DNA from: Escherichia coli O157:H7
GTDB lineage: Bacteria; Pseudomonadota; Gammaproteobacteria; Enterobacterales; Enterobacteriaceae
DNA length: 64,000 bases
Reading direction: 5' to 3' (one strand)
Assembly (NCBI RefSeq): GCF_013167455.1
Contig: NZ_CP038328.1
Shown here: piece after piece, positions 1-27,000 of the stretch
How positions within the stretch are numbered: position 1 is the first letter of the stretch
Layout of the letters: every line of letters begins with the position of its first letter
Position numbers: made by a program

Positions 1-3000
1 ACATCACCAAAGTGTGCCTGGAACTGGGGGGTAAAGCACCAGCTATCGTAATGGACGATGCCGATCTTGAACTGGCAGTCAAAGCCATCGTTGATTCACG
101 CGTCATTAATAGTGGGCAAGTGTGTAACTGTGCAGAACGTGTTTATGTACAGAAAGGCATTTATGATCAGTTCGTCAATCGGCTGGGTGAAGCGATGCAG
201 GCGGTTCAATTTGGTAACCCCGCTGAACGCAACGACATTGCGATGGGGCCGTTGATTAACGCCGCGGCGCTGGAAAGGGTCGAGCAAAAAGTGGCGCGCG
301 CAGTAGAAGAAGGGGCGAGAGTGGCGTTGGGTGGCAAAGCGGTAGAGGGGAAAGGATATTATTATCCGCCGACATTGCTGCTGGATGTTCGCCAGGAAAT
401 GTCGATTATGCATGAGGAAACCTTTGGCCCGGTTCTGCCGGTAGTCGCATTTGACACGCTGGAAGATGCTATCTCAATGGCTAATGACAGTGATTACGGC
501 CTGACCTCATCAATCTATACCCAAAATCTGAACGTCGCGATGAAAGCCATTAAAGGGCTGAAGTTTGGTGAAACTTACATCAACCGTGAAAACTTCGAAG
601 CTATGCAAGGCTTCCACGCCGGATGGCGTAAATCCGGTATTGGCGGCGCAGATGGTAAACATGGCCTGCATGAATATCTGCAGACCCAGGTGGTTTATTT
701 ACAGTCTTAATGAGTGAAAGAGGCGGAGGTTTTTTCCTCCGCCTGTGCGCGTCAGAGTTTAGCGAATTTTTCGAGGGTGCGAATAAGCTGCGTGACGAAG
801 CCATATTCGTTGTCGTACCAGGCGACCGTTTTCACCAGTTGTAAATCGCCCACGGCGGTAATTTCCGTTTGCGTGGCATCAAACACCGAACCGAAATGGC
901 TGCCAATGATATCGGAAGAGACTATTTCTTCATCGGTATAACCAAATGACTCGTTATTGGTGGTTGCTTGTTTAAGTGCGTTATTCACCTCTTCGGCAGT
1001 CACTTTTTTTCCGAGAATCGATACCAGTTCAGTGACCGAACCTGTTTTCACCGGCACGCGTTGCGCATGACCTTTCAGTTTGCCGCTCAGTTCCGGGATC
1101 ACCAGACCAATGGCTTTTGCCGCGCCCGTAGTGTGGGGAATGATATTTTCTGCCGCGGCGCGTGAAGCACGTAAATCTTTACCACGCGGGCCATCCACCA
1201 GTGACTGGGTGCCAGTATAGGCATGAATGGTCGTCATCGTGCCGACTTCTATCCCGAAACTGTCATGCAAGGCTTTGGCCATCGGCGCAAGACAGTTAGT
1301 AGTGCATGATGCCACGGAAACAATGGTGTCGTTGCCATCCAGAGTGTCGTCATTGACTTTATAAACGATAGTTTTCATTTCACCTGCAGGGGCGGAAATC
1401 AACACCTTCTTCGCGCCAGCATCAAGATGCGCCTGCGATTTCTCGGCGGAGGTATAAAAGCCAGTACATTCGACAATGATTTCTGCACCTTTCGCTTTCC
1501 ACGGAATATTTTTAGCCTCTTTTTCGGCGTAAACCGCGATACTTTTCCCATCAACGATAAGTGAATCTTCCGTAAAATCAACGCTCCAGGGGAACGGACC
1601 ATAGTTTGAATCATGTTTCAGCAGATAGGCGAGAATTTTTGGGGAAGTAAGATCATTAATAGCGACAACGTCTATGTTGCTTTTGACTTCAAGTAATCGA
1701 CGCAACACCAGTCGACCGATACGACCAAAACCGTTAATACCAACTTTACTCATGGTTTTCTCCTGTCAGGAACGTTCGGATGAAAATTGATCCTTTCCAG
1801 GCTTAGACCAGGATGGCGGGATGGGCAATCTCCATTCTTACAGTGAAACGTAACGTACTGAAAAAGGGTGAACAATATTTAATGAAATTTTGAGAAAAGC
1901 CCGTTATGTTAACGGAAAATTATGTTAAAGCAGGAAATGTTATGGAAAATAAATACTCAAGGTTACAAATCAGCATTCACTGGCTGGTCTTTTTGCTGGT
2001 TATCGCAGCGTATTGCGCAATGGAGTTTCGGGGTTTCTTCCCACGTAGCGATCGGCCACTCATCAACATGATTCATGTTTCCTGCGGCATATCAATTCTC
2101 GTGCTGATGGTCGTTCGTCTTTTGTTAAGGCTGAAATACCCAACCCCGCCGATTATACCTAAGCCAAAACCGATGATGACGGGACTGGCGCATTTGGGAC
2201 ATTTGGTGATTTATCTCCTGTTTATTGCGCTGCCAGTGATTGGTTTGGTGATGATGTATAACCGAGGCAACCCGTGGTTTGCGTTTGGTTTGACGATGCC
2301 TTACGCTTCAGAGGCCAATTTCGAACGGGTAGATAGCTTAAAGTCGTGGCATGAAACGCTGGCGAATCTGGGATATTTTGTCATCGGTTTGCACGCTGCG
2401 GCTGCACTGGCACACCACTATTTCTGGAAGGACAACACACTTCTACGCATGATGCCGCGTAAACGTTCCTGAAGGATATTTAAAGAAAACGCCTGTACTA
2501 AAACCGACCCGTGGTACAGGCGAAGAATACGGGTCTACATCGGAAGCGCCTATTATATTTATTTGTATGACAAATAAAACCATAATCCTTGCCCATACGT
2601 CCATCTGGCTTATTTTTAATCAATTCACCCGATCTTTGATCTCATCAACGGTATCAAAATAAACCAGCGTATAACGTTCAAATCGAACATAAGATTCGAT
2701 AAACCATGGAGGTTATATGAAAAAACTGGCACTTATTTTGTTTATGGGAGCGCTTGTTTCCTTTTATGCCGATGCCGGGCGCAAACCCTGTTCTGGTTCG
2801 AAAGGGGGGATCTCACACTGTACGGCAGGCGGCAAATTTGTCTGTAATGATGGTTCTATTAGTGCATCGAAAAAAACATGCACTAACTGAAGTGTAAAAG
2901 GGGTGCCATGAGAAAATGAATCTGCTAGTCAGATGCGCGGGGAAAATCCCCGCGCTTGCCCTTACCTGGACGTGCAGGCCATGAGCGCAGCAACCTCCTT

Positions 3001-24000: not shown

Positions 24001-27000
24001 CCGATTGTTCTTATCGCACTGTACCTGGCGTTCGTGAAACGTCTGGGAGCGTTTGATGCACTCTGAACGCGCACCGTTTTTCCTCAAACTGGCGGCCTGG
24101 GGCGGCGTTGTTTTCCTACATTTTCCCATCCTGATAATCGCCGCCTATGCGTTTAACACTGAAGATGCGGCGTTTAGTTTTCCACCGCAGGGCCTGACGC
24201 TGCGCTGGTTTAGCGTGGCAGCACAGCGTAGTGATATTCTTGATGCCGTGACACTGTCACTTAAAGTGGCGGCGCTGGCGACATTAATGGCGCTGGTGTT
24301 AGGGACGCTGGCAGCTGCCGCGCTGTGGCGACGAGACTTTTTCGGCAAAAACGCCATTTCGCTGTTACTGCTGCTGCCCATTGCGCTGCCGGGCATTGTC
24401 ACTGGTCTGGCGTTATTAACCGCCTTTAAAACCATCAATCTGGAGCCGGGATTTTTCACCATCGTGGTCGGTCATGCGACTTTTTGTGTAGTTGTGGTGT
24501 TTAACAATGTCATCGCCCGTTTTCGCCGCACCTCATGGAGTCTGGTTGAGGCGTCAATGGATCTTGGGGCCAATGGCTGGCAAACCTTCCGCTACGTAGT
24601 GTTGCCGAATCTCAGTTCGGCGTTACTGGCAGGAGGAATGCTGGCGTTTGCCTTGTCGTTCGATGAAATCATCGTTACGACCTTTACGGCAGGTCATGAA
24701 CGAACGTTACCGTTGTGGTTGCTCAATCAGCTTGGGCGACCGCGTGATGTACCGGTAACTAACGTGGTGGCACTGCTGGTTATGTTGGTAACAACCTTGC
24801 CGATCCTGGGAGCCTGGTGGCTAACCCGCGAAGGCGACAATGGTCAATAACCACTGATACAGGAATATGCTATGCAACATAAGTTACTGATTAACGGAGA
24901 ACTGGTTAGCGGCGAAGGGGAAAAACAGCCTGTCTATAATCCGGCAACGGGGGACGTTTTACTGGAGATTGCCGAGGCATCCGCAGAGCAGGTCGATGCT
25001 GCTGTGCGCGCGGCAGATGCAGCATTTGCCGAATGGGGGCAAACCACGCCGAAAGTGCGTGCGGAATGTCTGCTGAAACTGGCTGATGTTATCGAAGAAA
25101 ATGGTCAGGTTTTTGCCGAACTGGAGTCCCGTAATTGTGGCAAACCGCTGCATAGTGCGTTCAATGATGAAATCCCGGCGATTGTCGATGTTTTTCGCTT
25201 TTTCGCGGGTGCGGCGCGCTGTCTGAATGGTCTGGCGGCAGGTGAATATCTTGAAGGTCATACTTCGATGATCCGTCGCGATCCGTTGGGGGTCGTGGCT
25301 TCTATCGCACCGTGGAATTATCCGCTGATGATGGCAGCGTGGAAACTGGCTCCGGCGCTGGCGGCAGGGAACTGCGTAGTGCTTAAACCATCAGAAATTA
25401 CCCCGCTGACCGCGTTGAAGTTGGCAGAGCTGGCGAAAGATATCTTCCCGGCAGGCGTGATTAACGTACTGTTTGGCAGAGGCAAAACGGTGGGCGATCC
25501 GCTGACCGGTCATCCCAAAGTGCGGATGGTGTCGCTGACGGGCTCTATCGCCACCGGCGAGCACATCATCAGCCATACCGCGCCCTCCATTAAGCGTACT
25601 CATATGGAACTTGGTGGCAAAGCGCCAGTGATTGTTTTTGATGATGCGGATATTGAAGCAGTGGTCGAAGGTGTACGTACATTTGGCTATTACAATGCCG
25701 GACAGGATTGTACTGTGGCTTGTCGGATCTACGCGCAAAAAGGCATTTACGATACGCTGGTGGAAAAACTCGGTGCTGCAGTGGCAACGTTAAAATCTGG
25801 TGCGCCGGATGACGAGTCTACGGAGCTTGGACCTTTAAGCTCGCTGGCGCATCTCGAACGCGTCAGCAAGGCAGTAGAAGAGGCGAAAGCGACAGGGCAC
25901 ATCAAAGTGATCACTGGCGGTGAAAAGCGCAAGGGTAATGGCTATTACTATGCGCCGACGCTGCTGGCTGGCGCATTACAGGACGATGCCATCGTGCAAA
26001 AAGAGGTATTTGGTCCAGTAGTGAGTGTTACGCTCTTCGACAACGAAGAACAGGTGGTAAACTGGGCGAATGACAGCCAGTACGGACTTGCATCTTCGGT
26101 ATGGACGAAAGATGTGGGCAGGGCGCATCGCGTCAGTGCACGGCTGCAATATGGTTGTACCTGGGTCAATACCCATTTCATGCTGGTAAGTGAAATGCCG
26201 CACGGTGGGCAGAAACTTTCTGGTTACGGCAAGGATATGTCACTTTATGGGCTGGAGGATTACACCGTCGTCCGCCACGTCATGGTTAAACATTAAGGAT
26301 AATATTGCAGATCGTAAGAGTATGAGATGATCTTGCGTACTGTCAGAGCACTGATTTCTCTGACAGTACGTGCTGCGTGCAAAATCACTACATCAAATAA
26401 ACCAGCCAAATCTCATAGAGATAAGAGTAAACAAACCAACAGCAGCAAAGACATTTATCAGTACTACAGTTCTACTGGAAACATTCATTTTTGCCACCTT
26501 TTATCATTGCCCCTATGTGTATAGTACGGGTTAAGAAAATCCGCAATAATACTCATTCTGAAGATGGATAAGGGCAAGTTGCTGTTTGATGTTTTTTTCT
26601 CAAACCGGTTAAAAAACTTGATGCACGTCAAAAAATGACGCATATTTGCGCGCGTTTTATTCATCTGGCTGGACGCCCGTACATGTCTCTCTATCAACAC
26701 ATGCTTGTTTTTTATGCGGTTATGGCAGCAATCGCATTTCTTATCACTTGGTTTCTTTCTCACGATAAGAAACGCATCCGTTTCTTAAGCGCCTTTCTGG
26801 TGGGGGCAACATGGCCGATGAGTTTCCCGGTGGCGCTGTTGTTTTCACTGTTTTAAATCTTACTCACTGGCTTGACGGCACCACGCAGACTTATATCATT
26901 TGGATGAATCGATAAATTTCACAAGTGGCTAAGGAGAAAGTATGTCGCATCTGGATGAAGTCATCGCGCGCGTGGATGCCGCGATTGAAGAGAGCGTCAT

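Follow-up and report, generated by a model that had tools for sequence, protein, structure and literature searches.

Three independent toxin loci and unrelated small genes lie close together in the chromosomal backbone of Escherichia coli O157:H7

Three toxin loci, namely the type I system hokB/mokB with its antisense RNA SokB, the type II system hicAB and the orphan toxin gene ortT, lie within 24 kb of each other in a 64,000-nucleotide stretch of the Escherichia coli O157:H7 chromosome (contig NZ_CP038328.1 of assembly GCF_013167455.1; hereafter, the window). An earlier note, made from the sequence alone, had singled out positions 2483-26856 (the span) for a high density of small toxin loci, accompanied by the small genes yncL and ydcA. 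We find that the span is very probably an ordinary, annotated piece of backbone in which three independent, known toxin loci and several unrelated small genes are coincidentally close, each acting alone. The elements themselves are already known: each is recorded in RefSeq and in EcoCyc-derived entries, and experimental studies have been devoted to all three toxins. The observations made here concern their presence, integrity, near-identity to K-12, family membership, RNA folds, synteny and selection.

The span is core backbone with an intact set of small genes

Many E. coli O157:H7 chromosomes matched the span at 100% identity, and at least 80% of it was held by 5367 of 5426 complete E. coli genomes, indicating that it belongs to the core backbone. 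The homologous region of K-12 MG1655 lies at 1.49-1.52 Mb and had the same gene set and order as the RefSeq annotation of an identical O157:H7 strain. Every named element carries a name in the RefSeq and K-12 annotations. The sole structural difference was IS609, which in K-12 sits between ydcL and ydcO (comparison locus L002, 14662-16409) and is missing from the O157:H7 window. In a composition profile of window positions 1-30000, the small loci fell in segments with a GC content of 0.42-0.46, mildly lower than the 0.50-0.55 of the neighbouring large genes, and no island-like GC anomaly was seen; the span contained no integrase or tRNA hallmarks. An Rfam search of positions 2300-27300 with E up to 0.1 returned no RNA families besides sok and RydC.

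Gene identities were assigned with Pfam, NCBIfam and Rfam models, for which all reported matches exceed the curated cut-offs, and with the K-12 annotation. These agreed with the earlier note that hokB/mokB is a type I system, hicAB a type II system, ortT an orphan GhoT-like gene and yncL a gene for a small membrane protein, and that RydC and Sok RNAs are present. RydC, ydcA, hokB/mokB/sokB, hicAB, yncL and ortT were all present and intact at the places given for them, with every frame open and 0-3 amino acid changes per product relative to K-12: HicA, HicB, OrtT and RydC were identical, and the remaining products were 1-3 residues apart. The comparison with characterised homologues that had been proposed as the way to overturn these calls was run, and the products proved identical or near-identical to the K-12 proteins and RNAs. 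Most of the loci had also been described as shorter than 60 amino acids and therefore invisible among the listed open reading frames (ORFs). The list of ORFs of at least 60 amino acids indeed lacked hokB (49 amino acids), mokB (55), ydcA (57), hicA (58) and yncL (31), but ortT was shown as an extended ORF of 73 amino acids and hicB as one of 145. The annotation of genes below 60 amino acids in the window can be trusted.

Toxin loci and small genes are no denser than chance allows across the genome

Measured against a fixed 24-kb span, the density was high, with three toxin loci where 0.13-0.19 would be expected from 30-45 loci genome-wide. However, the limits of the span had been set after its genes were known, and we therefore used a genome-wide scan statistic. 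With loci placed uniformly on a 5.54-Mb circle, the probability of finding some triplet within 23.9 kb was 0.18 for 30 loci, 0.38 for 40 and 0.48 for 45, these totals being assumed for O157 rather than counted directly. For comparison, the count for E. coli NRG857c is 33 putative systems, a number that K-12 reportedly exceeds (PMC7232551). K-12 itself carries two other triplets of this kind: dinJ-yafQ, yafNO and ykfI-yafW within 18 kb (245,961-264,007), and ratA, rnlAB and ypjF-yfjZ within 24 kb (2,754,008-2,777,782). Both of these include cryptic-prophage loci (CP4-6, CP4-57), whereas no part of the hokB-hicAB-ortT triplet lies in a prophage, all of it being backbone.

The same comparison was made for small coding sequences (CDSs). 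Eight evenly spaced 50-kb pieces of the K-12 annotation held 1, 3, 6, 3, 0, 2, 1 and 0 CDSs below 60 amino acids, which extrapolates to a whole-genome total of about 186 (95% interval 106-302). The K-12 span contained seven such CDSs at five separate places versus 1.04 expected, and the scan probability was 0.09 for the seven CDSs and 0.94 for the five places. The local excess is real, although the overlap of three genes at a single locus partly inflates it, and it is not a significant outlier. Neither the clustering beyond chance nor the shared presence and absence with mobile-element hallmarks that would mark a toxin-antitoxin or defence island was found in the span. The earlier description of the density as high is thus accurate as a local excess over the fixed-span expectation, but does not survive as a genome-wide anomaly.

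The three toxin loci are retained and lost independently

The toxin loci are separated by gaps of 15.5 and 7.5 kb that hold unrelated housekeeping genes on both strands, and they share no operon. Their retention across the 5426 E. coli genomes also differed: the hokB locus was complete in 4502 (83%), hicAB in 4253 (78%) and yncL-ortT in 5405 (99.6%). Most genomes without a complete hicAB kept just a 3' remnant of hicB between yncJ and ydcR, and hicA together with the 5' part of hicB was lost in about 1100 genomes, or approximately a fifth, as exemplified by isolate 30821_1#335 (L004, 1258-1494). At the hokB locus, a deletion in Nissle 1917 (L005, 1570-2125) takes the 5' end of hokB, sokB and the 5' end of trg.

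To compare species we tabulated 80 ortT loci, one genome per species, with 10-kb flanks that reach hicAB but not hokB. ortT was found downstream of patD in 67 of these loci, in Escherichia, Citrobacter, Salmonella, Enterobacter, Kosakonia, Lelliottia and others, and yncL was detectable beside it in Escherichia, Citrobacter and Salmonella. The presence of hicAB in the yncJ-ydcR gap was restricted to Escherichia, except for two Citrobacter species with much more divergent copies. In Citrobacter sp. Cu233 (L083, 1166-1900), the hicAB found upstream of ydcR, where Escherichia has its own, shows 49% identity for HicA and 72% for HicB, while Citrobacter sp. On2M (L038, ~1568) has a HicB-like gene alone at that site, with 70% identity; the other Citrobacter species in the table had nothing there. 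Two histories are suggested by this pattern: the site may have gained the genes more than once, or they may be ancient there and have been lost many times. Because the phylogenetic depths of the toxins differ, with ortT family-wide and hicAB in Escherichia, they appear to have arrived at different times, which argues for coincidence or a permissive region rather than for a module. We also observed that in Escherichia sp. MOD1-EC7003 (L025, 2474-3197) yncJ adjoins yncL-ortT, the hicAB-ydcR-ydcSTUV-patD block being apparently missing.

Integrity of the small genes is expected from their size

The small loci had been said to be intact in contrast to decay in nearby enzymes. The decay was confirmed. 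Inside the span, rimL (9978-10514, plus strand) is a pseudogene carrying W99* (TGG to TGA at window 10274; 'internal stop' in RefSeq), and further downstream nhoA is split into two frames by a frameshift (window 46833-47677). The rimL W99* allele occurred in 294 of the 5426 genomes, and all listed examples were O157:H7 or O157-like. On the other hand, gapC (named 'gap'; window 752-1753, minus strand) is intact in the O157:H7 window and a pseudogene in K-12, so gene decay in this region is lineage-specific in both directions.

The contrast, in turn, carried no information. The seven named ORFs amount to 1257 nucleotides, compared with about 55 kb of other coding sequence that holds 2-5 lesions, which gives an expectation of 0.05-0.11 lesions in the named ORFs and a probability of 0.89-0.96 of finding none. 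The small ORFs are such a tiny mutational target that their integrity is predicted by size alone. Across the species, moreover, hicA and hokB were among the region's more frequently lost genes. Selection, where measurable, was purifying: dN/dS (the ratio of non-synonymous to synonymous substitution rates) was 0.04-0.06 for OrtT, 0.04 for HicB, 0.19 for HicA and 0.08-0.11 for YncL (Escherichia, Citrobacter and Salmonella orthologues), alongside 0.02-0.05 for PatD and YdcR. Purifying selection is acting on ortT, yncL and hicB. The persistence of intact small loci beside the rimL and nhoA pseudogenes is therefore accounted for by target size, together with purifying selection where it was measured.

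The hokB/mokB/sokB locus

The hokB gene (2962-3111, minus strand) encodes a type I membrane toxin of 49 amino acids that matched Pfam PF01848 at 77.5 bits (cut-off 22) and the NCBIfam Hok subfamily at 95 bits (cut-off 73). It is overlapped by the 55-amino-acid mokB frame (3002-3169, minus strand), an open ORF equal in length to K-12 b1420 with three substitutions, which has no annotation by the Prokaryotic Genome Annotation Pipeline (PGAP) in O157 records. The antisense RNA antitoxin gene sokB lies at ~3159-3215 on the plus strand, its coordinates transferred from K-12 b4429, with which 56 of 57 nucleotides are identical, and the Rfam sok model RF01794 (sok/hok-leader) matched 3106-3257 at 111.5 bits. 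The locus thus combines a Hok/Gef-family toxin, an overlapping mok frame and a cis-antisense Sok RNA opposite the mok start, as in other hok/sok systems, and it has the characteristic mRNA fold-back by prediction only, for a transcript with inferred ends.

In the predicted full-length hokB mRNA (3257 to ~2893, minus strand), the 5' sequence GGGUGCC (3257-3251) paired with GGCACCC (~2906-2900) in both the minimum free energy (MFE) and centroid structures (z = -6.2). When the RNA was shortened at its 3' end, the predicted 5' end refolded locally and the 5'-3' pairing was gone. The predicted SokB fold began with 12 single-stranded nucleotides at the 5' end, followed by a stem-loop of 14 bp and a U-rich tail (z = -4.5), and a terminator-like site was present at 3175-3206 in sokB. 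No hokB or sokB promoter emerged when 2400-3520 was scanned with the sigma-70 consensus; the promoters read by eye were weak matches, among them a putative sokB promoter, TTGCCG-17-TAACAT.

The locus closely resembles that of K-12 (b4428/b1420/b4429) in its site between ydcA and trg, its gene lengths, the overlapping mokB frame and the 5'-3' fold-back elements, which are identical. The codon edited from A to I by TadA is also intact (Y29, TACG, with the A at window 3026), and HokB keeps C9, C14, Y29 and C46; TadA editing of codon 29 and disulfide control have been described, with C9, C14 and C46 relevant to the toxicity of edited HokB (PMC12214031). The differences are H3R and G36S in O157 HokB, L3Q, I7M and R55Q in MokB, one nucleotide in sokB, three adjacent substitutions (3259-3261) just upstream of the presumed start of the hokB mRNA, and a single-nucleotide difference at window 3149 that makes the putative sokB -10 hexamer TAACAT in O157 versus TAAGAT in K-12. 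The S36 allele of HokB was found in 499 of the 5426 genomes, including non-O157 strains, and is for this reason a shared polymorphism rather than a private lesion. In strain HKUOPY1 (L006, 2855-4224), IS150 lies just upstream of an intact hokB, an arrangement that recalls the insertion sequences beside other K-12 hok loci.

Antisense to the 3' end of hokB is yncP (2916-2984, plus strand), a 22-amino-acid ORF missing from the earlier note but present in the RefSeq and K-12 annotations (b4774) that differs from K-12 by K6R. The antisense overlap with hokB is 23 nucleotides, and the two genes have been catalogued among convergent pairs with overlapping transcripts ('excludons'; PMC12288877). Neither yncP nor mokB had a Pfam or NCBIfam family match.

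HokB of K-12 is toxic and pore-forming (PMC6094483, PMC12214031), and its pores and the resulting ATP leakage are under Obg/(p)ppGpp control (PMC6094483, PMC5349102). If the O157:H7 locus behaves in the same way, a stable hokB mRNA would be kept from translation by base-pairing between its two ends until 3' trimming allows hokB to be translated through coupling to mokB. Binding of the cis-antisense SokB RNA at the mokB start region would block this translation. HokB that is made would enter the inner membrane, where its pores may leak ATP and depolarise the cell, and the TadA edit of codon 29 from Tyr to Cys would raise toxicity.

The hicAB locus

The hicA gene (18580-18756, plus strand) begins with GTG and encodes a ribosome-independent mRNA interferase toxin of 58 amino acids that matched Pfam PF07927 at 30.9 bits (cut-off 27). 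Directly downstream, after a 45-nucleotide spacer, hicB (18802-19218, plus strand) encodes the 138-amino-acid antitoxin and repressor, which matched Pfam PF15919 and has a DNA-binding HTH_3 domain. The system showed no notable difference from K-12 hicAB (b4532/b1438): both proteins were identical, and the toxin-first order, the spacer and the site between yncJ and ydcR were shared. At the nucleotide level hicA was identical at 177 of 177 positions, hicB had four synonymous differences, and the 221-nucleotide promoter region upstream of hicA differed at one position.

Cleavage of mRNA by HicA independently of the ribosome, and two-promoter control of the operon by CRP-Sxy and HicB, have been described (PMC11594946). 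Carried over from this K-12 literature, the activities in O157:H7 would be that HicA cuts mRNAs without the ribosome, while HicB neutralises HicA by binding to it and also acts as repressor at one of the two promoters.

The ortT and yncL genes

The 57-amino-acid OrtT (ydcX; 26683-26856, plus strand) matched Pfam PF10753, the Toxin_GhoT_OrtT domain, at 96.9 bits and was identical to the K-12 protein, including F38, a residue whose role has been described (PMC4344625). GhoT of K-12 belongs to the same Pfam family, has equal length and is identical to OrtT at 36 of 57 residues (63%). Unlike ghoT, however, ortT has no ghoS upstream; its neighbours are the divergently oriented yncL and ydcY (DUF2526). 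A tblastn search with K-12 GhoS gave no match below E = 1 in the 64-kb window, and none in the 80 ortT loci of other species. These features mark ortT as an orphan GhoT-like membrane toxin by sequence, in agreement with experiments in K-12, where OrtT was not neutralised by YdcY, GhoS, flanking RNA or a genomic library and damaged the membrane during folate or stringent stress (PMC4344625). In O157:H7, this antitoxin-less membrane peptide may likewise lower ATP and growth under folate or stringent stress.

Beside it, yncL (26393-26488, minus strand) encodes a single-pass membrane protein of 31 amino acids that matched the NCBIfam equivalog NF000537 at 68.7 bits (cut-off 35), has a single hydrophobic helix at residues 8-24 and differs from K-12 by F13V. 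YncL is cleaved in vivo as a substrate of the protease RseP (PMC10470546).

The ydcA and rydC genes

The earlier note had grouped YdcA with YncL as small membrane proteins. This holds for YncL, but YdcA (2717-2890, plus strand; 57 amino acids), a RefSeq CDS that matched NCBIfam NF007462 at 146 bits and differs from K-12 by T12A, appears to lack a membrane-spanning segment that would be kept in the mature protein. Its sole hydrophobic run is about 13 residues long (LALILFMGALVSF), with KK before it and YADA after it, and the rest of the protein is hydrophilic with four cysteines. This short run between KK and YADA, followed by a Cys-rich hydrophilic remainder, is the layout of a signal peptide, and the protein is named 'periplasmic protein' in the RefSeq record of another strain. 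YdcA is probably a secreted or periplasmic peptide rather than a membrane protein.

At the start of the span, rydC (2483-2546, minus strand) encodes an Hfq-dependent small RNA that matched the Rfam covariance model RF00505 at 92.5 bits (gathering score 48) and was identical to K-12 at 65 of 65 nucleotides. RydC is a known pseudoknot, a structure that MFE folding cannot represent, and the z of -0.7 from this method was uninformative.

Alternative explanations for the proximity of the loci

Several observations count against a purely coincidental grouping of loci that each act alone. Relative to a fixed window, toxin loci exceeded expectation by a factor of about 15-20 and CDSs below 60 amino acids by a factor of about 5-7. 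In a list of 36 K-12 toxin loci with partly provisional coordinates, there were three triplets within 26 kb versus 0.6 expected (P = 0.03), so that toxin loci appear mildly clumped genome-wide, with the span as one clump. Six of the 36 loci fell in the terminus-proximal 1.40-1.66 Mb, a window picked post hoc. All five changes between O157 and K-12 in ydcA, yncP, hokB and yncL were non-synonymous, which is compatible with weak constraint. In addition, expression, toxicity and activities in O157:H7 are taken from the K-12 literature; for HokB this means a K-12 protein that differs at two residues (H3R, G36S), and the K-12 hok loci, among them hokB, are described as non-functional killer systems in a review that refers to Pedersen and Gerdes 1999.

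Some of these points would fit a zone close to the replication terminus in which toxin genes and other small accessory genes are preferentially gathered or kept, so that the density would be a property of the region, with the loci still functionally independent. The six terminus-proximal loci compare with 2.0 expected, the insertion of hicAB between yncJ and ydcR is lineage-specific, with a divergent counterpart at the same site in Citrobacter sp. Cu233, IS150 and deletions occur at the hokB site in some strains, and the K-12 span carries IS609. However, besides the provisional coordinates and a 260-kb window chosen after the data were seen, two of the six terminus-proximal K-12 loci are presumably prophage-borne, ortT is ancient and syntenic family-wide rather than an accessory arrival, the span has none of the compositional, integrase or tRNA signs of acquisition, and small-gene counts are overdispersed anyway, from 0 to 6 per 50 kb in the eight K-12 samples. 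We consider such a zone unlikely, although it keeps a modest chance of being right. A bolder form, in which terminus-proximal Escherichia intergenic sites (cybB-trg, yncJ-ydcR and patD-ydcY are the candidates) repeatedly capture and retain toxin genes, so that the density would reflect a regional bias and possibly shared starvation control, is hinted at by the divergent hicAB at the yncJ-ydcR position in a Citrobacter species, and seems to us improbable. More improbable still is the idea implied by the earlier note, a functional stress or dormancy neighbourhood in which selection would preserve three starvation- or (p)ppGpp-responsive toxins as an intact group, with dispensable enzymes nearby decaying. 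Published work does connect hokB with Obg/(p)ppGpp, ortT with the stringent response and hicAB with starvation for amino acids and carbon, and OrtT, YncL and HicB are under purifying selection in a lineage with rimL and nhoA pseudogenes. Yet 15.5 and 7.5 kb of unrelated housekeeping genes, encoded on both strands, lie between the loci, and each locus is lost independently of the others: ~20% of genomes lack hicA and ~17% have an incomplete hokB locus, while ortT is near-universal. The loci also differ in evolutionary age, the contrast between integrity and decay is what target size alone predicts, and no antitoxin partner for OrtT emerged when a genomic library was screened (PMC4344625).

A separate question is whether some of the tiny ORFs (yncP, mokB and ydcA) are not maintained as coding genes at all and instead persist through the constrained RNA elements that they overlap or adjoin. 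Both yncP and mokB overlap hokB and its regulatory RNA and lack family matches, and in mokB three of the four changes from K-12 were non-synonymous, in addition to the five changes noted above. That five-change pattern had P = 0.0003 relative to the neighbours, a comparison that left out ydcL, but P = 0.24 under neutrality, and five substitutions are too few to tell neutrality from constraint. The role of mok in the hok family is translational coupling, for which an open frame is the important feature. In addition, an NCBIfam equivalog model covers ydcA, whose layout of signal peptide and Cys-rich remainder is coherent, and yncP is an accepted K-12 gene. We regard it as quite unlikely that these ORFs are mere by-products. 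The coincidental proximity of independent, known loci in ordinary backbone remains the reading that we strongly favour.

Other features of the window

Outside the span, the window holds a polymorphic-toxin locus at ~37269-44052, with a VgrG gene, a gene for an Rhs core protein and two small downstream ORFs, which constitutes a fourth toxin system. A group II intron D1-D4 fragment (Rfam RF01999, 90 bits) at 44292-44409 on the plus strand lies between an IS1 remnant and an ISAs1 (ydcC) pseudogene and is absent from the RefSeq annotation. Within the ydcC (ISAs1 transposase) pseudogene, at 45398-45409, there was a 32-bp length difference relative to strain 17B6-2, and downstream of it three mismatches to the same strain in 18.6 kb. 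Finally, a selenocysteine insertion element (Rfam SECIS_3, 84 bits) was found at 62977-63035 on the plus strand within fdnG, as expected for formate dehydrogenase-N.

Implications for work on E. coli toxins

The O157:H7 allele of hokB, with H3R and G36S, is not the one used in the studies of persistence and RNA editing. The variable loss of hicA and hokB across E. coli is likewise relevant when toxin-antitoxin results obtained in K-12 are extrapolated to other lineages.

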